The notes beneath the pieces are model-generated. The model did no database searches. It was not told the DNA's origin and saw nothing but the letters and a program-made list of their open reading frames with translations. From the NCBI GenBank assembly GCA_965223485.1, contig OZ244993.1:74958-138957 (forward strand): DNA of 64,000 nt, given 5' to 3'. The DNA comes from Rhodothermales bacterium. Lineage in GTDB: Bacteria; Bacteroidota; Rhodothermia; Rhodothermales; VXPQ01. The translations under genes were made by a program, and so were the position numbers. Shown in pieces: positions 5,636 through 63,029 of this stretch. Every line of letters begins with the position of its first letter. The first letter of the stretch is position 1.

Positions 5636-5831
5636 CGGTACATGCGTCGCTTGCGACGAAGCGCCCCTCTCACGCATGACCTTTCGACTTGATCCCGGCA
5701 TGATTCATAGTACCGGACTGCCCTGAACATCTTCCGGGAAGCACGCCGGTCCACATGAAACGCAATGTATTTCCAGGCGTTTGCGTGTACCTTGCGCATG
5801 CCTCGCCGTGTATCCCTGCATCTCATCGGAC

Positions 5832-7202
5832 GTGTCCCTGTCCCCTTCCATAACAGATTGGAGTCCCGCGTCCTGGCGAGAGCGGCCTGCGATGCAGCAA
5901 CCCACGTACCGCGATCAGGCCGAATTGTCCGAAGCGCTGGCGAAGTTACATGCTTTGCCCCCGCTCGTGACATCCTGGGAAATCCATGTGCTCAAGAAAC
6001 AGATTGCCGAAGCGACGCAAGGGCAGCGTTTTATCCTGCAGGGCGGCGAATGCGCGGAACACTTCGACGAATGCAGCGCGCAGATTATCGCCAATCGTCT
6101 GAAGGTGCTTCTTCAGATGAGCCTCGTACTGATCTTCGGGATCCGGACACGCGTCGTGCGGATAGGCCGCTTTGCAGGCCAGCATGCCAAACCCCGCTCT
6201 TCCGATAGCGAAACCCGCGATGGAATAACGCTCCCGAGCTACCGGGGCGATATCGTCAACAGTGCAGATTTCACGCCCGAGGCGCGCGAGCCGGATCCCA
6301 AGCGGATGCTACGCGCCCATGCGCATTCCGCGATGACGCTGAATCTCGTCCGTGCGCTCATCAATACGGGCTTTGCGGATCTCCACCATCCGGAATACTG
6401 GAACCTCGATTTCATCCACCGTACGCCGCTGGAAAACGAATACCGGCAGATCCTCGAATCCATTCGCGAGACGGTTTCGTTCATTGAAACCGTCTCGGGC
6501 AACCCGCTTCACAGCCTGGAACGCACCCAGTTCTTCACCAGCCATGAAGCATTGCACCTGCCCTACGAAGAAGCCTTCACGCGCAACGTGCCGCACAATG
6601 AAGGCATATTCAATCTGGCAACCCACTTCCCGTGGATCGGCGCCAGAACTGCTGACTGCGAGGGAGCCCACATCGAATATGCGCGCGGCCTCGTCAATCC
6701 GATCGGCGTGAAAGTAGGACCCTTCATGTCGCCGGAGGATCTGGTGCGCATCGTACGAATCCTGAACCCCGAAAACGACCCCGGTCGACTCGTACTTATT
6801 CATCGTCTGGGCGCCGGCTGCATCGCCGATCTCCTGCCCCCCCTGATCCGGGCCGTGCAGGTTTCGGGCACGCCTGTGTTGTGGATGAGCGATCCCATGC
6901 ACGGAAATACTGAATTGACGGGTGCAGGCATCAAGACCCGGCGCTTCGAAAACATCCTGGACGAACTTGAACAGGCATTTGACATTCATGCTGCGGAGGG
7001 ATCGCATCTCGGCGGCGTGCATTTCGAACTCGCGGGAGAAGACGTTACCGAATGCACAGGCGGCGCAAGCGGCCTGGAGGACACCGATCTGGTACGCGCC
7101 TACAAATCGCAAGTCGACCCGCGGCTGAATTACGAACAAGCACTGGAAATGGCTTTTCTTATCGTGAGAAAGAAAAATCGCATGGAAAACAAATCGGCTT
7201 AA
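5832..7202 (+). CDS. Class II DAHP synthase (3-deoxy-7-phosphoheptulonate synthase)
   Basis: WSPASWR start, LQGGECAE, RIGRFAGQHAKPRS, SYRGDIVN, SHEALHLPYE, WIGART, DPMHGNT, DPRLN; GTG start at 5832 inferred. Confidence 0.95.
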   Translation: MSLSPSITDWSPASWRERPAMQQPTYRDQAELSEALAKLHALPPLVTSWEIHVLKKQIAEATQGQRFILQGGECAEHFDECSAQIIANRLKVLLQMSLVLIFGIRTRVVRIGRFAGQHAKPRSSDSETRDGITLPSYRGDIVNSADFTPEAREPDPKRMLRAHAHSAMTLNLVRALINTGFADLHHPEYWNLDFIHRTPLENEYRQILESIRETVSFIETVSGNPLHSLERTQFFTSHEALHLPYEEAFTRNVPHNEGIFNLATHFPWIGARTADCEGAHIEYARGLVNPIGVKVGPFMSPEDLVRIVRILNPENDPGRLVLIHRLGAGCIADLLPPLIRAVQVSGTPVLWMSDPMHGNTELTGAGIKTRRFENILDELEQAFDIHAAEGSHLGGVHFELAGEDVTECTGGASGLEDTDLVRAYKSQVDPRLNYEQALEMAFLIVRKKNRMENKSA

Positions 7203-31102: not shown

Positions 31103-31394
31103 GCAGCCTGCATTCAATGACTCGCAACAATTTGTTAAGATACGGCGTAAAGCCTTACAATAAAAATGGCCCGGCGCACCTCTTGCTGTTCCCCGTTCGT
31201 GGAGTGCCGGCGCAGAAGCGCTGGAAAGTATTTCCCCCAGGCATTGCCCGGTATGTCTCGCATTCCGGCCGGGTCCTGGCTTGCCGGGTCGGAACTTCGC
31301 ACGCCGATCTGTGTAAATATTTGTTTACCTCGCAGGAACCCTGTAAACACGCTGCCAAACACTACTACCGTATCTACGACAGGAGATCGTCATT

Positions 31395-36384: not shown

Positions 36385-37134
36385 ATGACGCCCGCACTCT
36401 TTCCGATCTTTTTTGCGCTGTTTTTTTTGACATCCGGAGCCGCTCCTCCGGACGGAGACGTTTCGCCTCCGCTATACTATTCCATTGAACGGGACGGCAC
36501 GCTGTACGCACGTCCGGACCGGACAGCGCCTTTGCCCGATTTTCGCCCGCTCGCCCTGCAGGAGCCGCTCTTCATGCTGGATGCGCAAGACGGGTGGTTG
36601 CATGTCAGAACGATGGATGACGTTACCGGCTTCGTGCCCGAGGAATCCGTGTCCAATGTGTGGCTCCGCATTTCGAAGAAGCGGCAAATGCTTTTTGCGT
36701 ACCGGGGAACGGAGTTGGCGTTACGGGTTCCGGTAGATCTGGCTCTCAACGCCATCATGGACAAGGAACAGCGAGGCGGTCCGCTGGAGCCCGATCACTG
36801 GCGTACGCCCGAAGGAAGCTTTCATATCGTGGCGAAAAACCCGGACAGCAAGTTCTATAAGGCTCTTCTGCTTAACTACCCTTTGGTTGAAGACGCCGAG
36901 CGGGGAATCAGATCCGGCCTGATCACCGAAGAGGAATACCAGGCTATTGTGGAGGCGGAAGAGACGATCGGGGTACCCCCGATGAACACATTGCTGGGGG
37001 GAGGTATCGCAATCCACGGCAACGGCACAGGGAGCGGTGTGAACTGGACGGAAGGATGTATAGCCGTAACCGACCGGGTGCTCGACCGGTTATGGGAGAT
37101 GGTGCATGTGGGTACGCCGGTGCTGGTGGAGTGA
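36385..37134 (+). CDS. L,D-transpeptidase family protein with SH3-like N-terminus
   Basis: Signal peptide; TPEGSFHI, IAIHG...NWTEGCIAV (HxxxxGC), VGTPVLVE. Confidence 0.88.
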   Translation: MTPALFPIFFALFFLTSGAAPPDGDVSPPLYYSIERDGTLYARPDRTAPLPDFRPLALQEPLFMLDAQDGWLHVRTMDDVTGFVPEESVSNVWLRISKKRQMLFAYRGTELALRVPVDLALNAIMDKEQRGGPLEPDHWRTPEGSFHIVAKNPDSKFYKALLLNYPLVEDAERGIRSGLITEEEYQAIVEAEETIGVPPMNTLLGGGIAIHGNGTGSGVNWTEGCIAVTDRVLDRLWEMVHVGTPVLVE

Positions 37135-37161
37135 AGGGGGGGAATCGGGGTAAGGGTATAA

Positions 37162-37556
37162 GGTGCTTATATCGAATAGTAACCGCCAGGATGTACAAGT
37201 TTAGTATTTACCCGACACCCGGGGTCTCCGGCGCGTGATCGGGCGACTTATTTTTCGCACTCTTTTTACTCGATTGGAACGGCGGGTAGCGGTTTCTTTC
37301 TTCCGAGGGCGGCGAGCAGCGCATCCGCAGCGCGTTCGGGGCCTGCCGACCGGAGGAGCGGATCGTTAATTTTGCGCCTCCTTGATTTTTATATGATCCG
37401 TTTCTATAATATTAATAATTAAAATTCATGTGCGGGTCCGGGGTTGCCGACACCCCATGACCAGCGACAAAAGCCCCTGAGTAACTGGCCAAAGCGTTGA
37501 CCGCGCCGGTCTGAAAAGGGATAGCCCGCAACAGGTTACTATTCGATATAAGCCCC
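37162..37556. mobile_element. 395-bp non-autonomous MITE, probably IS1595-family
   Basis: Terminal inverted repeats GGTGCTTATATCGAATAGTAACC (37162-37184) and the reverse complement of 37534-37556, GGGGCTTATATCGAATAGTAACC, match 22/23. 8-bp flanks GGGTATAA and GAATATAA match 6/8. No convincing ORF inside. Confidence 0.8.
37382..37410 (+). promoter_or_regulatory. sigma70-type promoter inside the MITE, facing the T9SS gene
   Basis: TTGATT (37382-37387), 17-nt spacer, TATAAT (37405-37410). Confidence 0.6.
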
Positions 37557-37655
37557 GAATATAAAGTGCTGTGCGCACCCGGCCGAGAGAATCGATGAAA
37601 AACGGTTGAGCCAAAAGCACTGGCAACCGTTATCAAAGCATTTCTATCGGACATT

Positions 37656-39719
37656 ATGAAATACCTCATCGTCCTCTTTTTCTGCGTTTGCGCATTAGAG
37701 AATGTGCAAGCGCAATCACTGCTTGTTGTTTGCGCAGACCCCGGCTCGGTCTACGAGGGTTCGGCGGACTTTTCTCTGGATTGCTCGGCTTCGGGCGCTC
37801 CGGGCGCCAATCCTGTCTACACGTACGCCTGGACGGCGCGGGGCAGTACGGCGAACATGGGCCTGTTGAGTGCGACGGACATCCCTTCTCCGACCTTCAA
37901 CGTGCCGGATCAGGTGGACAGCGACCAAACCTACGAATATCTGCTGACCGTCTCTGCGGAAAATGCAGACGACGCGGCGGCGGAGGTGACGGTGACGGTG
38001 TTGAACAGAAGTACAGGTCCAGGTCCAGGCACAGGCGCACTGAGCGTTGTTTGCGCAGACCCCGGCTCGGTCTACGAGGGTTCGGGGGGCTTTTCTCTGG
38101 ATTGCTCGGCTTCGGGCGCTCCTTCGGGCGTCGCCTACGCATACTCGTGGGCGGCGCGGGGAAGTACGGCGAACACATCGCGACTTAGCGCGACGGACAT
38201 CCTCAGACCGACCTTCTACGTGCCGGATCAGGTGGACAGCGACCAAACCTACGAATATCTGCTGACCGTCTCTGCGGAAAACGCGGAATCCGCGACGGCG
38301 GAGGTGACGGTGACGGTGTTGAACAGAAGTACAGGTCCAGGTCCAGGCACAGGCGCACTGAGCGTTGTTTGCGCAGACCCCGGCTCGGTCTACGAGGGTT
38401 CGCCGGACTTTTTTCTGGATTGCTCGGCTTCGGGGGCTCCTTCGGGCGTCGCCTATAGGTATGTGTGGGCGGCGCGGGGCAGTACGGCGAACACGAGCCT
38501 GTTGAGTGCTGCGGACATCCTCAGGCCGACCTTCTACGTGCCGTATCAGGTGGACAGCGACCAAACCTACGAATATCTGCTGACCGTCTCGGCGGAAAAT
38601 GCAGACGACGCGGCGGCGGAGGTGACGGTGACGGTGTTGAACAGAAGTACAGGTCCAGGTCCAGGCACAGGCGCACTGAGCGTTGTTTGCGCAGACCCCG
38701 GCTCGGTCTACGAGGGTTCGCCGGACTTTTCTCTGGATTGCTCGGCTTCGGGGGCTCCTTCGGGCGTCGCCTATAGGTATGTGTGGGCGGCGCGGGGCAG
38801 TACGGCGAACACATCGCGACTTAGCGCGACGGACATCCTCAGACCGACCTTCTACGTGCCGGATCAGGTGGACAGCGACCAAACCTACGAATATCTGCTG
38901 ACCGTCTCTGCGGAAAACGCAGACGACGCGGCGGCGGACGTTACGGTGACGGTGCTTGATTTCCACAAACCCGGCTCCATAGAAGAAGACAGGTTAGCGC
39001 TTGAAGCATTGTACGATTCGACGAACGGCGATAACTGGATCGACAATACCAACTGGAAAAGCGACAAGCCAGTGCAGGAATGGTATGGCGTGTCCGTTGA
39101 TTTTGATGATGGGCGCATACGTGCCCTGAATCTGGATGGAAACGGATTATCCGGAAATATTCCTTCCGGGTTGGGCAATATGGGGGGATTACAGCGCCTA
39201 TCCTTACGGGAAAACAACTTGACGGGGAGTATTCCCTCGGGAATGAGCAATCTTAAGAATTTGGATTCCTTGAATCTTGCCGATAATTACCTGACGGGAA
39301 CCATTCCTGAATCCTTCATCGATCTTTCGCTGACGCTGTTTCATATCGGAGGTACAAATACCCTTACGGTACCTTCGTCCCTGATACCGTGGTATAACTC
39401 CATAAGCAATACGGATACGGAAGCGCCAACAGCCAGCGAACCCGCAGAACTTCCTGCAACACTTACGTTAGGCGGCAATTATCCCAACCCCTTCAATCCT
39501 GCGACAACTATCGAATATGCGCTCCCCGCAACAGACCATGTACGCCTCGCGGTGTACGATATGGCTGGAAGAACGGTCTCAGTGCTCGTGGACGGGGTGC
39601 GAATTCAGGGGCAACACGCGGTGCGCTTCAATGCTTATGGTCTACCGGCGGGTACATATGTATACCGCTTGCAGGCTGCCGGAACAACGCGGATACGAAA
39701 GATGACCTTGGTAAAGTAA
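37656..39719 (+). CDS. T9SS-secreted surface protein: four Ig/PKD-like repeats, plant-type LRR region, C-terminal sorting domain
   Basis: Signal peptide; four ~106-aa repeats; ALEALYDSTNGDNW...WYGV LRR cap and LxLxxNxLSGxIP repeats; CTD NYPNPFNP...VYDMAGR...LPAGTYVYRL...KMTLVK. Confidence 0.9.
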   Translation: MKYLIVLFFCVCALENVQAQSLLVVCADPGSVYEGSADFSLDCSASGAPGANPVYTYAWTARGSTANMGLLSATDIPSPTFNVPDQVDSDQTYEYLLTVSAENADDAAAEVTVTVLNRSTGPGPGTGALSVVCADPGSVYEGSGGFSLDCSASGAPSGVAYAYSWAARGSTANTSRLSATDILRPTFYVPDQVDSDQTYEYLLTVSAENAESATAEVTVTVLNRSTGPGPGTGALSVVCADPGSVYEGSPDFFLDCSASGAPSGVAYRYVWAARGSTANTSLLSAADILRPTFYVPYQVDSDQTYEYLLTVSAENADDAAAEVTVTVLNRSTGPGPGTGALSVVCADPGSVYEGSPDFSLDCSASGAPSGVAYRYVWAARGSTANTSRLSATDILRPTFYVPDQVDSDQTYEYLLTVSAENADDAAADVTVTVLDFHKPGSIEEDRLALEALYDSTNGDNWIDNTNWKSDKPVQEWYGVSVDFDDGRIRALNLDGNGLSGNIPSGLGNMGGLQRLSLRENNLTGSIPSGMSNLKNLDSLNLADNYLTGTIPESFIDLSLTLFHIGGTNTLTVPSSLIPWYNSISNTDTEAPTASEPAELPATLTLGGNYPNPFNPATTIEYALPATDHVRLAVYDMAGRTVSVLVDGVRIQGQHAVRFNAYGLPAGTYVYRLQAAGTTRIRKMTLVK
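37725..38956 (+). repeat. Four intragenic tandem repeats (321/318/318 bp spacing)
   Basis: Units start GTTGTTTGCGCAGACCCCGGCTCGGTCTACGAGGG at 37725, 38046, 38364 and 38682. Confidence 0.97.
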
Positions 39720-39897
39720 GCCACAGGAGCAGGAGTGTGGCCCCCGATTGCTGACCGGCTCCAGGAAACCTCCCATCCGACCCTCACGTAGAACGGATTA
39801 AGGGGTTTTTCGTCCCATCCGTTTTGTGCGCGTGCGTACGATGCGTCGGGACTGTAGCCTCGCGCGGCCATACGGTGGCGCCGTTCTTTGCATATAT

Positions 39898-40259
39898 GGG
39901 GATGACATGGTTTCGACGGGTGGTATTCGCGCTGCAAGTTGCGTGTCGAGCTCCTCAGTCCAGCTCGTTAATATGACTGGGAACCGGTAAATGCGAACGA
40001 TTACTCGTACGCGATGGCGGCGTAAGCCCCATCTGTCCAATGCGCTGCTTGTTCATCGGCGCGCATTCGGGCACCGACTCAGATGAACCCGCTGCGGCCC
40101 GTACCGGCTGAACAGGTCGCAGTCAAAACAATCAGCCTTTGCTTGCATCAAGCCCTTGTCGGGCGGCTCTCGATGCGAGTGAGCACGAAAGACCGACTAC
40201 ACACGTAGACGCTTGTCGGTACGACCATTCGGACGCGGGTTCGACTCCCGCCATCTCCA
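39898..40259 (+). ncRNA. ssrA: tmRNA
   Basis: 5' GGGGATGACATGGTTTCGAC; 3' GCGGGTTCGACTCCCGCCATCTCCA; acceptor pairing GGGGATG/CATCTCC; tag frame 39993-40025 = ANDYSYAMAA-stop. Confidence 0.96.
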
Positions 40260-40444
40260 CTATAGTATGCCGGGAAGTATGGAAGCGGATCACGGGATTT
40301 TTCCAATTCGCTTCTTCGGTTTTTCGAACGGGTAAGGTTATATTACGGCCGCGTGCGTGTCTTGTACCTGTTGCCGGGAATCACCGCCCGCATTTTTTTT
40401 TGCTTTGGTCATGGAAGTGGGTTGAAATCGAAGCGAAATCGATT

Positions 40445-40920: not shown

Positions 40921-41821
40921 ACCCCACATCTCCTGTCGAATACTCCCCACGCCGTCCGGCGAGTTGACGAGACTTTGTCGTCGTTTCGGTTTGAAGAATC
41001 TCTGTTATGGCGTTAGTTTATGGGCCGAAAGCAAACGGGTGTTTCCGAACACAAGGGGATACCCTCTTTGGAGTCTGGACAAGATTTTAAGACAACGAAT
41101 GGCAGACGAGAGAATTACCGAACTCGAACGACAGATCGGCGAGTTGACAGCGGAACTCAACACCCTGCGAAAGACCAGCCCGGGGACGCCTGTCCGCAAT
41201 TACACCTTTGCGACGCTGACCGGCGATACGACGCTGCTCGACCTGTTCGGCGAAAAGGACAAGCTACTTGCGATCCACAACATGGGGCAGGGCTGCCGCT
41301 ATTGTACACTATGGGCGGACGGCTTCAACGGATTGCTTGCCCATCTGGAGTCGGCCTTGTCCGTAGTGCTCCTCTCGAAGGACCCGCCGGAAACACAGCG
41401 CCGATTCGCCAATGTCCGCGGTTGGCGGTTTCGGCTGGCCTCGCACGGCGGCGGGGACTACATTCGTGAGCAATCCGTCGTAAACGGCCAAAACAACTAC
41501 CCTGGCGCCGTGGTCTACGAACGCGACGGCGACGCCATTCTGCGCAAGAACGCGTGCGTGTTCGGCCCCGGCGACATCTATTGCGCGATGTGGAGCCTGC
41601 TCGGCCTCGCGGGGCTTGGCGAAAAGGATTGGACCCCCCAATACGCTTATTGGAGCCGCCCGGGCAAGTTGGACGACGGCGGCTTGAACGTGCTCGAATA
41701 GTGTCGCTGCGTCCCGTGCGGTTCGCCCAGGTAAACCGGGGTGTTGGGTATGAGGCGACCGGGAAGGCGGCGCTGCTTCACTCCGCCGTGTCACCCCACA
41801 TCTCCTGTTGAATACTCCCCA
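40921..41821. repeat. 29-bp direct repeat pair (40921-40949 and 41793-41821) flanking the DUF899 gene
   Basis: ACCCCACATCTCCTGT(C/T)GAATACTCCCCA, 28/29 identical; both copies encode GEYSTGDVG-stop on the minus strand. Confidence 0.9.
41099..41701 (+). CDS. DUF899 family thioredoxin-like protein
   Basis: TLLDLFGEKDKLLAIHNMGQGCRYCTLWADGFNG (CxxC), LLSKDPP, GWRFRLAS. Confidence 0.8.
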   Translation: MADERITELERQIGELTAELNTLRKTSPGTPVRNYTFATLTGDTTLLDLFGEKDKLLAIHNMGQGCRYCTLWADGFNGLLAHLESALSVVLLSKDPPETQRRFANVRGWRFRLASHGGGDYIREQSVVNGQNNYPGAVVYERDGDAILRKNACVFGPGDIYCAMWSLLGLAGLGEKDWTPQYAYWSRPGKLDDGGLNVLE

Positions 41822-43386
41822 TCCACAAGGCGCCGGACGCCGCGCTCGTTACGGTCGCGCAGTTCCGGGGGCAATGCGGACGAGGGAAAATCCTGCCAGG
41901 CCGCGGGCCGCACGAACCGTTGAATGGCGGTGTCGCCCACAGCCCCTGTGCGTATGTCGGTCGTGGCCGGATAGGGGCCGCCATGGTGCATGGCCGGGCA
42001 TACTTCCACGCCCGTCGGGAATCCGTTGAAAATGAACCGGCCCGCCTTGCGCCGCAATGCACGAACGAGGCCGTCATGCCGGGCAATATCTTCCTCATCG
42101 CCGTGGATCGCCGCGGTGAGTTGCCCTTTCAGTCTGTGGGCAACCTGCTCGAGCTCAGCAGTATCCCGGGCAACCACGACAAGGCTCGACGGCCCGAACA
42201 CTTCTTCGGACAGCATATCGTTCGCCAGGAAGGTCTGCACATCCGTGCGGAAGAGTGCTCCTCCGCCCTCCGTGCGCGCGGGATCCGCCTCCTTTTCCGA
42301 AGCCGCCACGCGCTGGACTCCTTGCGCAGCAGCCAACCGGTCGGCGCCGGCGCAGAACCGGTCGCGTATGCCCCGGTGGAGCATCGACGCCGGTTCGGCC
42401 CGGCGGATGTGCTCACCCAAGGCCCGCAGGAAGGTTTCCATCGCTTCCCCGGCGACCCCGAACACCAGTCCAGGATTCGTGCAGAACTGCCCGACCCCCA
42501 GCAGGATCGACCCCGCCAGTTTTTCGGCAAGGGCCTCTGCCCCGTTCTCCAACGCGGAAGGCAGAATGAACACCGGATTGACGCTCCCCATCTCGGCGTA
42601 CACCGGAATCGGTATGGGACGCGCCGCCGCCGCATCGAAAAGCGCGCGTCCTCCCTGGAGCGATCCGGTGAAGCCCACCGCCTGCACCAGCGGGCGCCGC
42701 ACCAGCCCGAGTCCGACCTCGTAGCCTTGTCCATGCAATAGTGAAAACACGCCGGCGGGCATCTTTCCGGCCTCGGCGGCCCGGAGGATAGCCCGGGCCA
42801 CCAGCTCGGACGTGCCGGGATGCGCCGGATGCGCCTTGCAGATTACCGGGCAACCTGCGGCCAGCGCAGAAGCGGTGTCGCCCCCCGCCACCGAATAGGC
42901 CAGCGGAAAGTTGCTGGCCCCGAATACGGCCACCGGCCCGAGGGGCACGTACATGCGGCGCAGGTCGGGTTTGGGATGAGGCGTACGATCCGGCACAGCA
43001 CGGTCGATGCGGGCGTCCACCCACGATCCTTCCCGCACGACGGCGGCAAAGAGCCGCAACTGATACACGGTGCGGCCTCGTTCTCCCCGGATCCGGCCCT
43101 CCGGAAGCCCCGTTTCCCGGTGGGCGCGTTCGACCAGTGTGTCGCCGAGACCCTCGATCTCCGCTGCAATACGCTCCAGAAAAACCGCCCGGTGGGCGGG
43201 TTCGGTGGCCGCATAGGCGTCGAAAGCGGCCTCGGCGGCTTCGGCGGCAGCGTCGATGTCGGCAGAGGAAGCCTCGCAAAACACGGGATCAAGGCCAGCA
43301 CTCTGTACCGGATCCCAGGCGCGGAAGCCTTCTGTATTCTCGCCGTTCGTCCAGCCTGCAATAAGATGTTTACCGGAAAGAGTCAT
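41791..43386 (-). CDS. NADP-dependent aldehyde dehydrogenase (2,5-dioxopentanoate/KGSA dehydrogenase-like)
   Basis: PLGPVAVFGASNFPLAYSVAGGDTASALAAGCPV, GFTGS, AEMGSVNP, GQFCTNPG, EEVFGP, GFPTGVEV, HGGPYPATT. Confidence 0.93.
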   Translation of the reverse strand: MTLSGKHLIAGWTNGENTEGFRAWDPVQSAGLDPVFCEASSADIDAAAEAAEAAFDAYAATEPAHRAVFLERIAAEIEGLGDTLVERAHRETGLPEGRIRGERGRTVYQLRLFAAVVREGSWVDARIDRAVPDRTPHPKPDLRRMYVPLGPVAVFGASNFPLAYSVAGGDTASALAAGCPVICKAHPAHPGTSELVARAILRAAEAGKMPAGVFSLLHGQGYEVGLGLVRRPLVQAVGFTGSLQGGRALFDAAAARPIPIPVYAEMGSVNPVFILPSALENGAEALAEKLAGSILLGVGQFCTNPGLVFGVAGEAMETFLRALGEHIRRAEPASMLHRGIRDRFCAGADRLAAAQGVQRVAASEKEADPARTEGGGALFRTDVQTFLANDMLSEEVFGPSSLVVVARDTAELEQVAHRLKGQLTAAIHGDEEDIARHDGLVRALRRKAGRFIFNGFPTGVEVCPAMHHGGPYPATTDIRTGAVGDTAIQRFVRPAAWQDFPSSALPPELRDRNERGVRRLVDGEYSTGDVG

Positions 43387-43519
43387 GGTGGAGGCAATTT
43401 TTCTGCGTATCTAATCAGAGGAGATGGGAAGACTACCGGCAAACGGAGGGGTCCGTAAAAGCTGGGCAATCTTATATAATGTACTATTGCGTTAGGTCAT
43501 GCCGCCCTGATCAGCGATT

Positions 43520-43572
43520 TTCGTTTGTAGAATACGTGGTCGGAGGTGCGACTGTCAAGCGCTTGGCAAGGA
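43520..43572 (-). promoter_or_regulatory. Promoter-containing repeat, copy 1 (downstream of the methyltransferase, facing the aldehyde dehydrogenase)
   Basis: Minus strand TTGACA (43558-43553), 18-nt spacer, TATTCT (43534-43529); 41/53 identical to 46769-46821. Confidence 0.7.
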
Positions 43573-43671
43573 TGTTCCTCGTTGAAATAGCGCAGGTAGT
43601 TAACGATGGACGGCATCCCGTAAACTGCGTAAGTGGTCATTCGTACACAGTTAAGCGGACACGCCCCACGA

Positions 43672-45873
43672 TTAGCGAATATCTTTGACAGCGCTTGCAT
43701 CGTAGACGCTTCGTCGGGGAACAACCCCGGCTGGAGTAATCTTCACTCGAGTTGAAGGGGTCTTCATAATTTCGTCATGTAGCGACGAAAGGCGCTCCAG
43801 GATATCCTCGTAGGCAAGAGATTGCCCCCCTGTATTGATAAGCATCTGCGCTGCTGCAATGACAAACCTGTCGCTACGCGATATCGAAATATTGAATGCT
43901 GCGAGTTTGGTCGCGAGATGCTCAGACTGATCGATCGGCGAGCAAGTGAGTTTCTTGCCCAGGGTCAACGTCTCGCGCTTCCTGCAAACGAGAATCGCGT
44001 CCAGACTGATAGGATCCTTCGTGGCCGACTTCGAACTCGATGCTCGAAATTCTGCGTGGACGGGATAAGAAGCAACAACGACAAGACCAGCGTCTTTGAT
44101 CGCCTGATAGATCGAAGCCCAGCCATCGGCCCGTGAGTGATGGAAGCTGAAAGTAAGCACTCCGTATGGTTTGAGGACACGATGACACTCGGAAAAGACA
44201 CGAGCAAGTTGTCGAGAGAAGGATTGCGGATCTCTGTGCTGTACTTCTCCCTGGTCAGAGCAATCCGGGCGATCCATCCATGGGTATCGGTCGGCAAGAA
44301 CTGGAGACAACCATGCGAAGAAAAAGTCGCTCAATTCGCTGTAGTGGACAAAATCGAAGTACGGAGGATCAGTGACTACTGCGTCGACGGACCCGTCGGG
44401 GATGGGCAGCGATGCACTGTCGCCATTGAGGACCATAACGGAATGGGGGGTTTCCTGAAGATCTGACCAATTGCTTACACACTTCGGATTGAGCGACGCG
44501 CTTGAGACAGACTTGCGCGTTCCGCAGCGTTGACCGAAAAGGTCGTGCTGAAGCTGAATCTCAAACGGAACGTCAAGGTAACGCTTTGCTCGCACGAGAC
44601 GGGATTCAAATAGCGTGCAGAACGTACCGCTACTTTTGTTAGTGCCCCAAACCGAGTTTTCAAGCGGTGTTCGTTCCGGCTTAAGGATGTGGTGTGAGAA
44701 CATATGGCGGACAGCACCGGTGCCTTCGCCTTTGTAACTGCAGAAAAGGTTATTGAACTCAAGGGTACTCGAGAACAAGCAGAGCATTTGTTCCTGTATG
44801 CACTTATCCTTGATCTCAAGGATTTTGCGTAATAGCATGCCTAGGCAAAGAAGCTGTCTGGCGTTAAAAAAATCTCTCCAATACAGATAGTTGTAGCCCC
44901 GTGCCTGGTTAGTATTATATCCGGGGCGAACTCGAAGAGTTGGAAGCGGCAGATTCTCTTCGCTGAGCCTGATCTCGGCTTCCGCATAGAGCACTTGGTC
45001 TTCCGGTCGCGCGGCAAGATAGATCTTCTCGCCATTCGGTCGCAGGGCTAACATCGCGTAGAGCCGGTGGCTCAGCGGTGTGCCATCGGTCGGCAGAAGC
45101 TCTCTGATTTTGTGCTTCAAGCCGTCCGGTGCAGTTACGTATTGTCCTTTGGCAGGACCAGCCTGCGGATTGAAATGATGTTCGCAGTACGGGCAGTCCA
45201 GAGATGTAAGATCGTATCGGCTCTCGATAACCTCCCAACAGTTTGGGCATATTACTTGTGCGCAAGGCTCTTTCTTTGGATAGGCGTTCTGCGCAAAAAC
45301 GTAACGCGAGAAAAGAGGAATGACATCACCCCGACGCGTAGTAACCGTCTTGCACCAGAAGTAGTATAGGACAGGGATCAATTCGCCGCTTTCAGGATCT
45401 CGGGTCTGATAGTAGTGCCGGATATCCGGTGCAACTTCCGCCTCGATCTTTGCGAAAGCATCACGAAGTTGTGCTTCTGGAACCTGTGTGAATGCTTGGC
45501 GCACAAGAAATGTACTTACCGGATTAATGTCACTACCTATAGCCCGCGCGCCTAGTTTGAGCGCCTCTCCAAGAGTTGTCCCGCTTCCCATGAAAGGATC
45601 AAGAACTACCTTGCCGGACAGATTGTGTCGGTCGTAAAAACGCTCCCAGATATCCGTGTTGCTCTCGGCGAGTGCACCTATAATAATGCCGCGAAAGACC
45701 GAACCCAATCGCCTTGCCCACCATTTGTGGATGTGATAGAGTGGACGGTTAATTTCCTTACGCCAGCTTTCCTGCTGGGCCAATTCGCTGATCTCGAGTA
45801 CTGGAAATCCCGTTTCCAGCGCCGTCACACGGTCGTTGTTCTTTTTCCGGGGACTTGCGCGATGCTTGCCCAT
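43672..45873 (-). CDS. DUF1156-type amino (m6A/m4C) DNA methyltransferase with Zn-ribbon insert
   Basis: HIHKWWARRLGSVFR N-terminus; motif I VLDPFMGSGTT; CPNC...CPYC; motif IV VVTDPPYFD; VLTFSFHH. Confidence 0.88.
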   Translation of the reverse strand: MGKHRASPRKKNNDRVTALETGFPVLEISELAQQESWRKEINRPLYHIHKWWARRLGSVFRGIIIGALAESNTDIWERFYDRHNLSGKVVLDPFMGSGTTLGEALKLGARAIGSDINPVSTFLVRQAFTQVPEAQLRDAFAKIEAEVAPDIRHYYQTRDPESGELIPVLYYFWCKTVTTRRGDVIPLFSRYVFAQNAYPKKEPCAQVICPNCWEVIESRYDLTSLDCPYCEHHFNPQAGPAKGQYVTAPDGLKHKIRELLPTDGTPLSHRLYAMLALRPNGEKIYLAARPEDQVLYAEAEIRLSEENLPLPTLRVRPGYNTNQARGYNYLYWRDFFNARQLLCLGMLLRKILEIKDKCIQEQMLCLFSSTLEFNNLFCSYKGEGTGAVRHMFSHHILKPERTPLENSVWGTNKSSGTFCTLFESRLVRAKRYLDVPFEIQLQHDLFGQRCGTRKSVSSASLNPKCVSNWSDLQETPHSVMVLNGDSASLPIPDGSVDAVVTDPPYFDFVHYSELSDFFFAWLSPVLADRYPWMDRPDCSDQGEVQHRDPQSFSRQLARVFSECHRVLKPYGVLTFSFHHSRADGWASIYQAIKDAGLVVVASYPVHAEFRASSSKSATKDPISLDAILVCRKRETLTLGKKLTCSPIDQSEHLATKLAAFNISISRSDRFVIAAAQMLINTGGQSLAYEDILERLSSLHDEIMKTPSTRVKITPAGVVPRRSVYDASAVKDIR

Positions 45874-45876
45874 GCC

Positions 45877-46680
45877 TCAACCCCTATTAGTATTAGGTAA
45901 CATGGACACTTCCTTGTCCACCTGATTCTCAAGCCGATAAGCGATGAAGCGGTGTTCCATGCCTGCACGCGGATTGGGCACAAGCTCGGCTGTGAGCTCA
46001 TTGGTCCGAAGATCGAATTTGTACGCCACGACGAGTTCTGCCGCTTCGGTTCGAGTAAGACCCCCCACCTTTCGAAAATTACCCGGAGCCTCCGTGTTTT
46101 CGGGAACGATAAGTGTCATAAGCCCGGTAGCACCTTCCGTAAGAGCAAAAGGCGTGGGAGCAACATACATCTTTCGATCACGGATCATGATATCACCGTA
46201 GGTGCCGAAGCCTTTCACATTCTTATTTTGGTGACTGTATTCGTGATCAGCATTGAGAAAATTTCCGTGGCAGATCACCAGATCCACGACAGGGTACTTG
46301 CGACGACCACTGCCGATATCTTCGTATGGATCGAGGTCAGCGGGGTAGCGTCCGAAAACGTAAAAAATGCTGCGACCGTTGTGAAAGCCGGTTGGCACTT
46401 GGCTGTTGGAATCATAGTTGCGTTCGCGACCAGGCCAAGCCAGCCCCTTGATTTCATAGCCCTCGGTATATTCGACGAGAGAAAAATCGGGGTAACTATT
46501 CCGACCGCCAGGCTCGAAGTGCAATTTAAGTTGCCTAAGACGAGCCTGAAACCAATTCTGGAAATGAAATTCCTTGTCTCTGGGGCTGACTGACTCGATA
46601 AGCTCGCCAGCGTTGACTGCTTGGACACACTGCTCGAAAACCGCGAAGCAAGTTGTCGATTTATTCATCGGATCTGGCAT
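45877..46680 (-). CDS. Putative type II restriction endonuclease (PD-(D/E)xK fold)
   Basis: NSYPDFSL...GYEIKG catalytic pattern; stop lies 3 bp before the methyltransferase start; AT-richer than flanks. Confidence 0.65.
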   Translation of the reverse strand: MPDPMNKSTTCFAVFEQCVQAVNAGELIESVSPRDKEFHFQNWFQARLRQLKLHFEPGGRNSYPDFSLVEYTEGYEIKGLAWPGRERNYDSNSQVPTGFHNGRSIFYVFGRYPADLDPYEDIGSGRRKYPVVDLVICHGNFLNADHEYSHQNKNVKGFGTYGDIMIRDRKMYVAPTPFALTEGATGLMTLIVPENTEAPGNFRKVGGLTRTEAAELVVAYKFDLRTNELTAELVPNPRAGMEHRFIAYRLENQVDKEVSMLPNTNRG

Positions 46681-46768
46681 TCAGTCTGGATGCAAAGAAA
46701 AGATTTTAAACCTGGACAGTGCCTTAAGTGTCCCGTTGCGGTGATTTTTTGAGATCTGGCCAGTAGTC

Positions 46769-46821
46769 TTCGTTCGCAGAATACATCGTCGGGTCTGCGT
46801 TTGTCAAGCCATTGGCGAGGA
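46769..46821 (-). promoter_or_regulatory. Promoter-containing repeat, copy 2 (upstream of the nuclease-methyltransferase operon)
   Basis: Minus strand TTGACA (46807-46802), 18-nt spacer, TATTCT (46783-46778). Confidence 0.7.
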
Positions 46822-46885
46822 GTTCTTTTTTGAAGTAGCCTATAAGTCCAAAAAAATATCCCGCCTTCCATCTTCCGTCCCCCCC

Positions 46886-51533: not shown

Positions 51534-52436
51534 ATGCTCCAGACCTTCGACGAGCGCAACCGGAATATCCTTGTCAATATCAACGGCGCGCTGACGCCCC
51601 GGGACGAGGCGGGCGTGAGTCCGTTCGACAGCGCGGTACAGGGCGGGGACCTCGTATGGGAAGGGCTCCGTCTGTACGAGGGCCGCATCTTTCGCCTTAT
51701 CGAACATCTCGACCGGCTGAAAGCGTCGGCGCAGGCGCTGGCGTTTGCGGTCATTCCCTCGCACGAAGAAATCATCGGGGAAGTGCGTCGTACGCTGGAG
51801 GCCAACGGCATGCGGGACGGGGTGCATATTCGCCTGTCGCTGACGCGGGGGGTGAAAATCACGTCGGGCATGGACCCGCGCCTGAACCAGAGCGGTCCGA
51901 CCCTGATCGTGCTGGCCGAATACAAGGCCCCGGTGTACCAGACGGACGGGCTGTCGCTCATAACGAGTTCCATCCGGCGGTTTCCGCCCGACTGCCTGGA
52001 CCCGAAGATTCATCATGGGAATCTGCTCCAGTCGATCCTGGCCAAAACGGAAGCGAATACGGCGGGGGCGGACGATGCGCTGATGCTGGACCGCAGCGGG
52101 TTCATTGCCGAAACGAACGCCACGCATATCTTTCTGGTGAAGAACGGGGCCGTGCTGACGGGGCATACCCATGCCTGCCCGGAAGGCATTACCCGGCAGG
52201 TCGTGCTGGAATTGTGCGCAGCGCACGGCATCGAGTCCGACGTGCGGAATCTGTCTCTGGCGGAGGCGTACAGCGCAGACGAAATGTTCTGTACGGGAAC
52301 GATGGGCGAACTGGCGGGCGTTACGCGGCTCGACGGACGGACGATCGGCGACGGGCGCATCGGACCGATGACGCAGCGCCTCGGCGAGCTGTACCGGGAG
52401 GAGACGGCGCGCAGCGGGGTTGTGGTGGTGGAATGA
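51534..52436 (+). CDS. PLP-dependent aminotransferase class IV (BCAT/DAAT/ADC lyase-like)
   Basis: DSAVQGGDLVWEGLR, HLDRL, DPKIHHGN (PLP Lys), AETNATHIF, CPEGITRQ, ADEMFCTGTMGEL. Confidence 0.92.
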   Translation: MLQTFDERNRNILVNINGALTPRDEAGVSPFDSAVQGGDLVWEGLRLYEGRIFRLIEHLDRLKASAQALAFAVIPSHEEIIGEVRRTLEANGMRDGVHIRLSLTRGVKITSGMDPRLNQSGPTLIVLAEYKAPVYQTDGLSLITSSIRRFPPDCLDPKIHHGNLLQSILAKTEANTAGADDALMLDRSGFIAETNATHIFLVKNGAVLTGHTHACPEGITRQVVLELCAAHGIESDVRNLSLAEAYSADEMFCTGTMGELAGVTRLDGRTIGDGRIGPMTQRLGELYREETARSGVVVVE

Positions 52437-52605
52437 GACGGTCGCGGACCGCACCGATGACGCAGCGCCTCGCCGGGCTGTACCGGGAGGAGACGGCGTG
52501 AGCGGGTTGTGGTGGTGGAATGAGGCGGTCGCGGATCGCACCGATGACGCAGCGCCTCGCCAGCCTGCACCGGGAGGAGACGGCGTGAGCGGGTTGTGGT
52601 GGTGG
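52364..52605 (+). repeat. Three tandem copies (~88 bp) of the aminotransferase 3' end
   Basis: ACCGATGACGCAGCGCCTCG...CCGGGAGGAGACGGCG...GGGTTGTGGTGGTGG starting at 52364, 52453 and 52540. Confidence 0.93.
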
Positions 52606-56978: not shown

Positions 56979-57012
56979 CGCATGCCTGCCGGATAGGGCA
57001 GGGCCCCAAGAC

Positions 57013-57170
57013 GAATGAACGGCCCGCATGCACAACGCTGCGCGCGGCGCATCCTCAACAATCTCCGGACGGGCAGCAGCGCGAACGAACGGCCCGCATG
57101 CACAACGCTGCGCGCGGCGCATCCTCGACAATGTCCGGACAGGCGCAGCGCGAATGAACGGCCCGCTTGC
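57013..57170. repeat. About 2.3 tandem copies of a ~70-bp GC-rich palindromic unit (REP/BIME-like)
   Basis: GAA(T/C)GAACGGCCCGC at 57013, 57083 and 57152; internal inverted repeat ACGCTGCGC...GCGCAGCGC. Confidence 0.85.
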
Positions 57171-57189
57171 AAGGTGCGGCGCTCCGGCG

Positions 57190-60391: not shown

Positions 60392-60624
60392 GGCAGGGGG
60401 CAAGGAGAAGCATCTTGTTTTCGCCCGGCGCCGGGAAAGGTTCCGGGGGGGAGACGCCTTGCTCGGATGGGGGGGCGGGACGGCGGGAGGGATACTTGAG
60501 CAAAAAATCGCTGCGGGGTAGTCGGGTTGGGCTGTGCGTGATTTTATTTGGGAATTATAACTAATTGTTGACAGGCAGGGGATTCCTGCTTTAATATATA
60601 GGGGGGTTATATACCTAAAAAGAA

Positions 60625-60903
60625 ATGTGGAGGCAATTCGATGCAATCGACCCTGACAACGATCTGTGGGAGCGCCTGCAAAAGGCGGAGTAGCGTTTCG
60701 ATTACCTGCAAGGGGAAAAGGTGGAACGCTTGAAGTCCGAGATCAAGGAACTGGAGAGTCTGAATCAAGCCATTGACAGATACCATATCCAGCGGTGCGA
60801 TGCGGCGAGTGATCTGACCATGGCCTTGAGGGCGCTGGAAACCATTGGCGCTATCAAGTTGCCAACCGAACACCCGGAGGCACAAGCAGAGCAATCTGCC
60901 TGA
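60625..60903 (+). pseudogene. Cargo ORF 1, coiled-coil protein interrupted by an in-frame TAG
   Basis: MWRQFDAIDPDNDLWERLQKAE, TAG at 60691-60693, then RFDYLQGEKVERLKSEIKELESLNQAIDRY...QSA. A strong GGAGG RBS instead precedes ATG 60641 in another frame, so the 5' end may be decayed. Confidence 0.45.
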
Positions 60904-60956
60904 TTCCCCCCTTGGTGGAAAACGAAACCCTAAACCCTGAATCCGCGAGGAAAACC

Positions 60957-61322
60957 ATGCCTATTGGAAGAAAAACCACGTACGTTATTACGCCCGTAGA
61001 CAGCCCGATTGCATTCAGGGATGGATCAGACCAACCGTTCAGCAACGTGGACGGGAATGAGGATGAGGCCGTGGAGCAATGGTATTTCAAATACGCCGAG
61101 CGCTTTCTGGAATATCCAGAGGGGGAAACCGCCGTTGTTGCTGTCACGATCACTGATCCATTCTTGGGCGAGATCGGAACGTTTAGGGCACGCATTATTC
61201 CCGGCTGGGTAGGGGTAAGTATAGAACCGGACACGGGTTCAGCAGGGGTTGTAAACGATATGTTGACAGCCGCTAAAAACCCCGAATTGGCCAAGCAATA
61301 CTTGACGCGGAAAATATCCTGA
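60957..61322 (+). CDS. Cargo ORF 2, hypothetical protein
   Basis: GAGG RBS, ATG at 60957, open 121 codons, no recognisable domain. Confidence 0.6.
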   Translation: MPIGRKTTYVITPVDSPIAFRDGSDQPFSNVDGNEDEAVEQWYFKYAERFLEYPEGETAVVAVTITDPFLGEIGTFRARIIPGWVGVSIEPDTGSAGVVNDMLTAAKNPELAKQYLTRKIS

Positions 61323-61400
61323 ACAAGCAAAACAGGGATGCGCGTTGTGGAGCGATGCGCTTGGACATGCTTTCCAAATAACCCAAACCAACGAGGATAC

Positions 61401-61949
61401 ATGAAATACACAGAGACATTCACGGCGTTTGTGCGGTTCATCCGTGGGATCGAGAACGACTACAGCGCCGAGAAAAACGTGGACGGCTACATGAACGAGT
61501 TTCGGCAGGCTTACCGCGAGCGGTTCGATTGGCACAAGCCGTACGCCAGCAGCCCGGCAGACTTCATGCGTGAATTCGCCTTGCCGATGGAATTCAACGG
61601 TACGCACGTAATCGTCGAAGGGTCGTTCAAGAAGAACCTGCACGGTCCAGACACCCATATCGACACGTTGATCGTTCGAATCCCGAAGGAAGAATTCGAG
61701 ATCGACAGCGGCGAAATGAAGAGCAGGGACCGAGACACGTTGTTCTGGTTGATCGAGTACATCAAGCCGGATCCGACCTACCTGATCCCGTACGCCGAGG
61801 TGCAACCTCGATGGGAACAGGCGGAATCCGATGAAAACCTTGAGTTCATGAACTCCGGGCCGGTCGGCATGGAATACCGCGAAAAGCCGCAGCGCCCGTT
61901 GCAGGAGCAATACAGGGTGTACAATCCCGAACTGCAAACAGAGAACTAA
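61401..61949 (+). CDS. Cargo ORF 3, acidic hypothetical protein
   Basis: GAGGA RBS, MKYTETF start, 182 codons, GC-rich third positions. Confidence 0.7.
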   Translation: MKYTETFTAFVRFIRGIENDYSAEKNVDGYMNEFRQAYRERFDWHKPYASSPADFMREFALPMEFNGTHVIVEGSFKKNLHGPDTHIDTLIVRIPKEEFEIDSGEMKSRDRDTLFWLIEYIKPDPTYLIPYAEVQPRWEQAESDENLEFMNSGPVGMEYREKPQRPLQEQYRVYNPELQTEN

Positions 61950-61958
61950 GCCGGGTAT

Positions 61959-62120
61959 GTGCATACGTATTCATACGAACAGGCGGCGGAAGCATGGCTT
62001 TCTACGCCCGACAGGATGGAGCACGCTATCCACGTCAAGATCAAAAAAACCGAAGAGGACACATGGAGGACGTACAGCGTCCGGTCGACCCCGGTGGTTG
62101 ACTTCGTGTTTCAAGGATAA
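61959..62120 (+). CDS. Cargo ORF 4, small hypothetical protein (53 aa); not in the ORF track
   Basis: VHTYSYEQAAEAWLSTPDRMEHAIHVKIKKTEEDTWRTYSVRSTPVVDFVFQG; same frame as ORF 3, after its TAA. Confidence 0.4.
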   Translation: MHTYSYEQAAEAWLSTPDRMEHAIHVKIKKTEEDTWRTYSVRSTPVVDFVFQG

Positions 62121-62273
62121 TCCACCCCTATATTACCGTAACCGCTACAGCGCCGTGTTCGATGGGTTCGGTCTGCTATTCACGCCATGACCCGCGAAAC
62201 AAAACCGGCCTCGGCATGTAGGACATAAACGCAAAACGGCGGGAGGCCAGAGGAAGGAAACCTCTCAGACGAA

Positions 62274-62423
62274 ATGGTCAAAATGGTAAAGTACGAGGCG
62301 TATGCTTATGGCCTCGATATAGAAAAGGTCACGAACGTTCTGGCCATCGTGCTACGAGATGAGTTACTCGCAATCTATAACGTAGACTTGCCGTCGCCGG
62401 CCACGACTCGCGATGACAAGTAG
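62274..62423 (+). CDS. Cargo ORF 5, small hypothetical protein (49 aa); not in the ORF track
   Basis: MVKMVKYEAYAYGLDIEKVTNVLAIVLRDELLAIYNVDLPSPATTRDDK. Confidence 0.35.
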   Translation: MVKMVKYEAYAYGLDIEKVTNVLAIVLRDELLAIYNVDLPSPATTRDDK

Positions 62424-62471
62424 CCCTCCAGATACAGACGTAACGCGCGTTTTCGGATTCTATACGCTCGT

Positions 62472-62954
62472 TCAGGTTGTTTTTCTGCTTTTCCTGTTTT
62501 CCTGGGTGCTATCCTGACTATAATTCAGTTTTCCTGTCGCTGACAGGGCGTCATCGCCGCCATCGAATGCCTTGCGGATGCGCTGGAGCAGATGCCATGC
62601 ATTCTTCTGGGCAATACCGATGTCCCGGTGCAACTTCATGGAGGAAACGCCTTTCAGGTTCGTCATGTGCAGGTAAATGGCATATGCCCACTTGCGAAGC
62701 GGAAGATTGGAACTCTCCATGACTGTGCCGACCTTGACGCTGAAATACTTGCGACAGTCCGTGCACCAGTACGGCATAGTCTTATGCGACGCTTCACGGG
62801 TGCGTGTACCCTTGCAACGGGGGCAATGGCGACCATCCGGCCAGATACGGGCTTCAAACCATTTGCGGGCCGTTTCCTCGTCGGGAAACATGTCCGCCAA
62901 CTCCATGAGAGTAATGCCGTTTCGATGTGTTTTTCCGGGCGCTACATGCGCCAT
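62472..62954 (-). pseudogene. Truncated IS1595-family (ISXO2-like) transposase
   Basis: FPDEETARKWFEARIWPDGRHCPRC...YWCTDCRKYFSVKVGTVMESS Zn ribbon and KGVSSMKLHRDIGIAQKNAWHLLQRIR HTH; sequence diverges where the VEVDETY DDE domain should begin. Confidence 0.9.
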
Positions 62955-62979
62955 AACAATCTCCGTTTTTTGCACCTGT

Positions 62980-63008
62980 AAAATACAACATTAATTTCTT
63001 TTTGTCAA
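62980..63008 (-). promoter_or_regulatory. Transposase promoter overlapping the IS end
   Basis: TTGACA (63008-63003), 17-nt spacer, TATTTT (62985-62980). Confidence 0.6.
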
Positions 63009-63029
63009 GTATTGGTTATATAATACCTT

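Follow-up and report, generated by a model that had tools for sequence, protein, structure and literature searches.

A non-autonomous IS1595-family element with a mosaic interior and a promoter candidate lies before a secreted LRR protein gene in an uncultured Rhodothermales bacterium

The 395-bp unit at positions 37162-37556 of the window (the whole 64,000-nucleotide stretch of Rhodothermales DNA that was analysed) is a MITE-like, non-autonomous member of the IS1595 family. Its boundaries could be placed sharply, some strains had it and others did not, and its interior was a mosaic; that this stretch is a mobile element can be regarded as very likely. The explanation that best joins the observations, and which we consider probable, is that an IS1595-type MITE with a mosaic interior was inserted in place and supplies a promoter for the LRR gene downstream. 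From the letters of the DNA, we infer the activity of this promoter, that of a terminator-like hairpin and any benefit to the host.

The ends of the element were located by a repeat search. The 20-mer GCTTATATCGAATAGTAACC was found only twice in the 64-kb window, at 37165-37184 on the plus strand and at 37534-37553 on the minus strand, and a repeat of this kind gave 0 matches over 100 dinucleotide-preserving shuffles. The two arms of the terminal inverted repeat (TIR) were identical in this core (20/20), agreed at 22 of 23 nt when extended to GGTGC... on the left and GGGGC... on the right, and were still 89% identical over 28 nt. The 23-bp TIR which the original prediction had placed around 37162-37556 was thereby confirmed by both the search and the shuffles. 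The left IS1595-type end (37162-37189, plus strand) consisted of the TIR GGTGCTTATATCGAATAGTAACC followed by GCCAG, and the right TIR (37534-37556, minus strand) read GGGGCTTATATCGAATAGTAACC from outside inward. The right boundary was also the place, at 37553-37557, where other copies diverged. As had been predicted, the 8-bp flanks, GGGTATAA at 37154-37161 and GAATATAA at 37557-37564 (neither with a strand), agreed at six of eight positions, and the position of the junction in the empty sites fits them; they form an imperfect target site duplication (TSD), while related elements have 8/8. An 11-bp direct repeat, TATAAGGTGCT/TATAAAGTGCT (10/11), could also be read over both junctions; the 11-bp TSD reading was rejected because the ends would then no longer line up with those of the autonomous relative, which begin with GG. 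The element was non-coding, since its interior ORFs had no Pfam match and all six frames were broken.

Comparison with relatives lacking the insert, as the original prediction had suggested, revealed clean empty sites. With the YkuD protein as the synteny anchor, the contigs of close homologues gave about 20 syntenic loci, whose flanks were 95-98% identical to the window (96% in L016 and 98% in L022). The BLAST alignment of L016 with the window began at 31372 and broke off at exactly 37162, where the left repeat has its first base. After the YkuD stop, L016, L017, L018 and L020 read ...GGGTAAGGGTATGAAGTACTGTGCACACCCAGCCGAGA..., and L011 was similar. These five alleles had a single GGGTATGA in the place of the left TSD copy, directly followed by the backbone common to empty alleles (AGTGCTGTGCGCACCCGGCCGAGA; window 37565-37590, plus strand). 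The window minus the element and one 8-bp flank was collinear with L016 and L011 through ...CCGAGA. Furthermore, the contigs assembled from runs X4 and X8 included the empty junction GGGGTAAGGGTATGAAGTACTGTGCA beside the occupied allele and at comparable depth. The element was carried by L001, L009 and L010, with a single SNP among the copies. The insertion is thus a presence/absence polymorphism, and since empty alleles exist, the element is not conserved in place in all relatives. Taken with the ends, the flanks and the broken frames, the empty alleles support the earlier view of a non-coding mobile element with a TIR and an 8-bp TSD.

The family of the element was assigned from a transposase-bearing relative. 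The locus L022 contained a complete 1230-bp IS with the ends GGGGCTTATATACCAAAGTAACC and GGGGATTATATACCAAAGTAACC and a perfect 8-bp TSD, TTTAGTAA. The 311-aa transposase of this IS possessed a Zn_ribbon_IS1595 domain (PF12760, 5e-12) and a DDE_Tnp_IS1595 domain (PF12762, 8e-41). The right end of the 395-bp element (GGGGC...) matched the TIR of the L022 IS at 19 of 23 positions and the left end (GGTGC...) at 18 of 23, which supports the predicted IS1595-type affiliation. In L012, an 804-bp element had the same TIR as the L022 IS and a perfect TSD, AAAGGAAA, and encoded no transposase. IS1595-family elements usually produce an 8-bp TSD, and a zinc finger and a DDE domain occur together in their transposase (PMC8101967). 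As the ends and the TSD length are shared with a transposase-bearing IS, the element is a non-autonomous derivative of this family. In addition, the Rhodothermales MAG contig L002 carried a solo IS1595-type end, GGGGGTTATATCGAAAAGTAACCGCCAG, at 6144-6171 on the minus strand, with the same ...AGTAACCGCCAG continuation as the left end in the window. This solo end lay just 3' of a gene stop and a G-run, mirroring the left junction in the window, and no partner repeat was present within 1.5 kb of it. Among the contigs of the relatives compared, no autonomous partner was found whose TIR has the CGAATAG variant, and the exact TIR 20-mer had no match in the genome-contig or metagenome-contig collections.

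The ends had also been likened to those of another element of the window, at 60550 and 63027. Both pairs begin GG..TTATA, and to that extent the likeness held; it was only loose, and the match to the L022 IS was much closer. The element at 60550-63027 was a 2478-bp IS1595-type element with the TIRs GGGAATTATAACTAATTGTTGACA and GGTATTATATAACCAATACTTGACA and a perfect 8-bp TSD, TTTTATTT. Its transposase was truncated to 167 aa, leaving only the zinc ribbon, and it held several passenger ORFs of lower GC. In each of its TIRs, TTGACA belonged to a promoter-like site that faces inward. Homology of the interior of the 395-bp element to this truncated transposase (62472-62975) was considered and rejected, as a 22-nt match (37317-37338 to 62564-62585) came without similarity at the protein level.

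The interior was assembled from parts of different origin. Behind the 28 nt of IS1595-type left end follows what reads as a dead remnant, about 160 nt long, of another IS. This captured IS481-like (rve) fragment at 37190-37350, on the minus strand, comprised the outer end TGTACAAGTTTAG... and the last ~25 codons of a transposase; the point near 37350 where it stops inside the element was estimated from the match at the protein level. Positions 37189-37322 were 84% identical to L022 5925-6058, where the IS terminus adjoins the 3' end of the gene for an HTH/rve (IS481-like) transposase of 355 aa, and it is this match that identifies the fragment inside the element as dead IS481-like sequence. 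The minus frame of the fragment read ...ALGRKKPLPAVPIE*, where the intact L022 transposase has the C-terminus ...ALGRKKLPPVVPMQQ. The first ~65 nt of the fragment (about 37190-37254) were present at 4-8 times single-copy depth in the metagenomes holding the locus. Their copies always started at 37189-37192 and were preceded by unrelated sequence, and the core of this module was matched in other Rhodothermales MAGs in a contig scan. The idea of a stand-alone terminator or small-RNA gene at 37190-37254 was discarded, since L022 shows that this module is the terminus of an IS481-like IS. Readings of the interior as a PATE or IS200-IS605 omega-RNA, a group II intron or a retron were likewise set aside, with no supporting motifs and no Rfam match.

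The remainder of the interior recurred in part elsewhere. The samples were mostly host-labelled, with one sponge metagenome. Their origin supports placing the DNA in the Rhodothermales, as do YkuD homologues named for this order, the Rhodothermales MAGs behind L002, L003 and L005 and the T9SS sorting domain of the LRR protein. A family-shared segment with an AT-rich island (GC 22%) occupied 37351-37441 on the plus strand and had further copies in metagenomes. A second copy in X1, X3 and X4 covered 37377-37481 with six mismatches, its promoter-like site having TACAAT as the -10 hexamer, and another metagenomic copy joined 37312-37393 directly to 37499. The subterminal right-end module (37442-37533, plus strand) was multi-copy in the metagenomes. 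From about 37442-37460 to 37553-37557, the right repeat included, it reached 4-8 times single-copy depth, and it was about 90% identical on at least three other contigs in X1 and at least two in X3. Other copies of the right ~100-200 nt had unrelated flanks beyond 37553-37557, seen as loose ends of contigs, and this divergence at the repeat end is as independent insertions of related elements would look. The left junction (37154-37187) was at single-copy depth in X1 and X3, the two runs read at that resolution, and no contig joining the left repeat to another locus was present in the remaining runs; therefore, the exact 395-bp composite was not seen elsewhere. The metagenomes held no full composite at a second locus, and only its parts recurred. 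The core of the right module was absent from the metagenome-contig collection, and the cores of both modules were absent from the viral-contig collection. Six-frame protein queries for spurious ORFs on other copies yielded no match to a 927-aa chimera and, for a 109-aa ORF, only the window's own. The description of the element as a MITE was kept with an amendment: it is small, non-coding and bounded by TIRs, and its left third is a captured IS481-like fragment, so it is not a simple deletion derivative.

The element lies between two protein-coding genes. The upstream gene (36385-37134, plus strand) encodes a YkuD-type L,D-transpeptidase of 249 aa (Pfam YkuD E = 4e-16; translation identical to P0078). 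The downstream gene (37656-39719, plus strand) encodes a 687-aa secreted protein, in which Pfam placed four PKD-like repeats and LRR between a signal peptide and a T9SS C-terminal sorting domain; as predicted, 100 bp separate the element from the start of its ORF at 37656. Before the insertion, the spacer from the YkuD stop to the LRR start was only ~126 bp. At 37717-39070, the LRR gene contained four tandem 318-bp repeats, 63-93% identical, which encode the PKD-like domains. The LRR product called in L009 was 614 aa long and that in L010 had at least 776 aa, and the PKD repeat numbers of these two differed. The length differences suggest that the PKD repeat number varies between strains, and errors in low-coverage long reads may contribute to them. 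A repeat finder also reported tandem arrays at 52328-52590 and 57001-57182, of ~87 nt (three copies) and ~70 nt (three copies), respectively. Downstream of the LRR gene was the tmRNA gene (ssrA, 39898-40262). In all the metagenomes examined, contig depth at 40173-40323 exceeded the local level by a factor of 10-180; this segment is not a repeat of this genome, because the matching contigs were the tmRNA 3' ends (T-arm and acceptor) of other bacteria.

The spacer between YkuD and ssrA (37135-39790) was hypervariable among strains otherwise 95-98% identical, and its variable part began right after the G-run following the YkuD stop. The LRR gene was absent from L006, L011, L012, L016-18, L021 and L022. 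In L006, positions 37142-39761 of the window (2620 bp) were replaced by 15 nt. The spacer of L012 held a TM2-domain gene and the 804-bp IS1595-type element, that of L021 a reverse transcriptase, an Mrr-type nuclease and a T1RH-like gene, and that of L022 an IS481-like element adjoining a methyltransferase. In empty alleles, the variable spacer had at its right edge the 15-mer GGAGCGGATTGAAAC twice, 72 nt apart, flanking a palindromic 57-nt segment (L011 6803-6889; L016 ~5812-5900; also L012 8206-8220, and degenerate in the window at ~39745-39775), and the ending of the 15-mer, ...ATTGAAAC, is reminiscent of a CRISPR repeat's 3' end. A strain-variable island was further observed at 43446-46877, which holds a 733-aa N6/N4 methyltransferase-like gene and a 267-aa ORF; it was missing in the alignments of L011, L012 and L016 and present in L006. 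At 43450-43610, a remnant of the 3' end of an rve-type transposase gene (minus strand, ...YLRYFNEERPHQGL...) was about 78% identical to L005 511-629 and L003 7286-7404. Within this remnant, TTGACA-N18-TATTCT faced the gene for an aldehyde dehydrogenase (41791-43386, minus strand), which makes it another instance in which IS debris before a gene has a promoter-like site.

The AT-rich interior had been said to hold TTGATT-N17-TATAAT pointing at the LRR gene, and this site was confirmed at 37382-37410 on the plus strand. The sigma-70-like promoter candidate matched the sigma-70 consensus at 10 of 12 positions with a 17-nt spacer, although the consensus may not be that of this lineage. Transcription was predicted to start near 37417, which would give the LRR gene a leader of ~239 nt. 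The locus was found in no RNA run, and X22, a run from the X1 sample, did not cover it. The AT-rich island around the promoter candidate was one of only four stretches below 30% GC in a window of 58.5% GC. On both strands of the 64 kb, six sites reached at least 10/12, and all were intergenic and faced a downstream gene or an IS transposase gene: those at 2391, 43558 and 46807 stood before ordinary genes, two faced inward in the ends of the 60550-63027 element, and the sixth was 37382-37410. Judged from the sequence, a promoter role of this site for the LRR gene is plausible, if somewhat short of an even chance.

The competing view to be taken most seriously is that of a passive insertion, in which an AT-rich IS control region produced the promoter match incidentally and the LRR gene is served by signals of its own in 37557-37655 or by read-through from the upstream gene; this is a real possibility, but not a likely one. 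AT-rich IS control regions easily mimic promoters, and the scan of 36900-37900 returned one site where 0.6 would be expected by chance in a 1-kb region. Moreover, the paralogous copy has the weaker -10 hexamer (TACAAT), a ~239-nt leader is long by bacterial standards, and nothing functional was recognised in that leader by folding or Rfam. The related elements speak in the same direction: neither the L022 IS nor the L012 804-bp element had an outward promoter-like site, so an outward promoter is not a trait of the family. Against a passive insertion, no comparable promoter-like site was found in 37557-37655, either in the scan or by manual reading, and the six best consensus sites of the window all lie where promoters are expected. 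The path of read-through is, in addition, crossed by a terminator-like hairpin with a T-run in the IS481-like end (37212-37254, plus strand; stem 37227-37243, tail CGACTTATTT), which faces transcription from the upstream gene; on the plus strand of the fragment, the hairpin is followed by CTTATTTTT. Termination at this hairpin would be consistent with its form, and its folding z-score was only -0.7.

A bolder version of the favoured explanation would join the two signals into an insulated expression cassette, with an IS481-derived terminator and an outward promoter that together would have taken over an LRR adhesin of eukaryote-like, strain-specific character. Both would lie just upstream of ssrA in a hot spot of cassette exchange, which in sister strains is filled with defence genes, with other small elements or with nothing. 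This proposal is tentative and, on the whole, unlikely. If it were true, mobile-element debris would set the expression of a host-interaction gene in these symbionts.

The element and the LRR gene were fully linked. All four LRR-bearing contigs (the window, L001, L009 and L010) were occupied, and the alleles without the LRR gene were all empty for the element. Among the syntenic loci compared, the LRR gene never occurred beside an empty site, which left no reference allele for what the insertion does to this gene. Such perfect linkage would also be expected if the element had arrived with the LRR cassette and recombined with it into the hypervariable YkuD-ssrA spacer. This route is improbable, because the empty alleles keep ~26 nt of backbone (AGTACTGTGC.CACCC.GCCGAGA) past the insertion point and the junctions show the 8-bp duplicate geometry of the family. 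The backbone in the empty alleles means that the element sits in sequence which exists without the LRR cassette, and insertion in place is therefore favoured.

The original prediction had further pointed to nested stems which might form a structured leader. The stems exist as sequence; the structured leader itself found no support, as the fold of 37425-37560 was no better than that of shuffles (z = -0.27 on the plus strand and +0.09 on the minus strand) and the element had no Rfam match at the gathering threshold, nor any but noise at E up to 10. That the whole interior is a structured RNA (a leader, a riboswitch or a small RNA) with the inverted repeat as its closing stem is very improbable: the segment 37431-37529 allows local stems, and if a transcript ran through the element from end to end, the arms of the 20-bp repeat could pair in it, but, besides these scores and the Rfam result, the left arm would lie outside a transcript that starts near 37417, and the repeat arms are explained as transposon ends, which a transposase-encoding IS also has.

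For the favoured explanation, a mosaic MITE inserted in place, the following course can be proposed. The element is built from 28 nt of IS1595-type left end, a ~160-nt IS481-like remnant and ~205 nt of family-specific sequence with the AT-rich island. Because it has no transposase, it would have been moved in trans, presumably by an IS1595-type zinc-ribbon/DDE transposase like that of L022. It would have entered the ~126-bp spacer between YkuD and the LRR gene, duplicating 8 bp of the target. Read-through from the upstream gene may then be stopped at the IS481-derived hairpin, and the LRR gene would be transcribed from TTGATT-N17-TATAAT, with a start near 37417 and a ~239-nt leader in which no conserved structure is detectable.

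Several known systems can be compared with this element. The IS1595 family comprises the bacterial relatives of the eukaryotic Merlin transposons. Like IS1595-family IS and their non-autonomous derivatives, the element has a GG-initiated TIR, an 8-bp TSD in an AT-rich target and ends matching at 19 of 23 positions. Unlike the autonomous IS of this family, it is without a transposase, has only 28 nt of left end and contains a foreign IS481-like fragment. The IS481 family is characterised by an rve/DDE transposase and ends starting with TGT; in agreement with this, 37190-37350 starts with TGTACA and matches the terminus and the transposase 3' end of the L022 element (84%), whereas it is only a ~160-nt dead fragment nested in an IS1595-type element. 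MITEs and IS ends that donate promoters are known, such as the Correia elements of Neisseria and outward IS promoters. The element resembles them as a small non-coding TIR element upstream of a gene with an outward sigma-70-like -35/-10 candidate. It differs from them in that the candidate lies ~150 nt inside the end, not in or across the terminal repeat, and in that the families are unrelated.

The present work documents an active IS1595-type non-autonomous element in an uncultured Rhodothermales bacterium, with its boundaries, its empty site and its cognate transposase family. The element stands directly before a strain-variable gene whose secreted LRR/PKD product belongs to a class that is often considered in connection with host interaction. 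Since promoter donation by small elements is known in other bacteria, the case extends a known principle and does not change it. Should the promoter be in use, the case would illustrate how such accessory genes, once acquired, get wired for expression.
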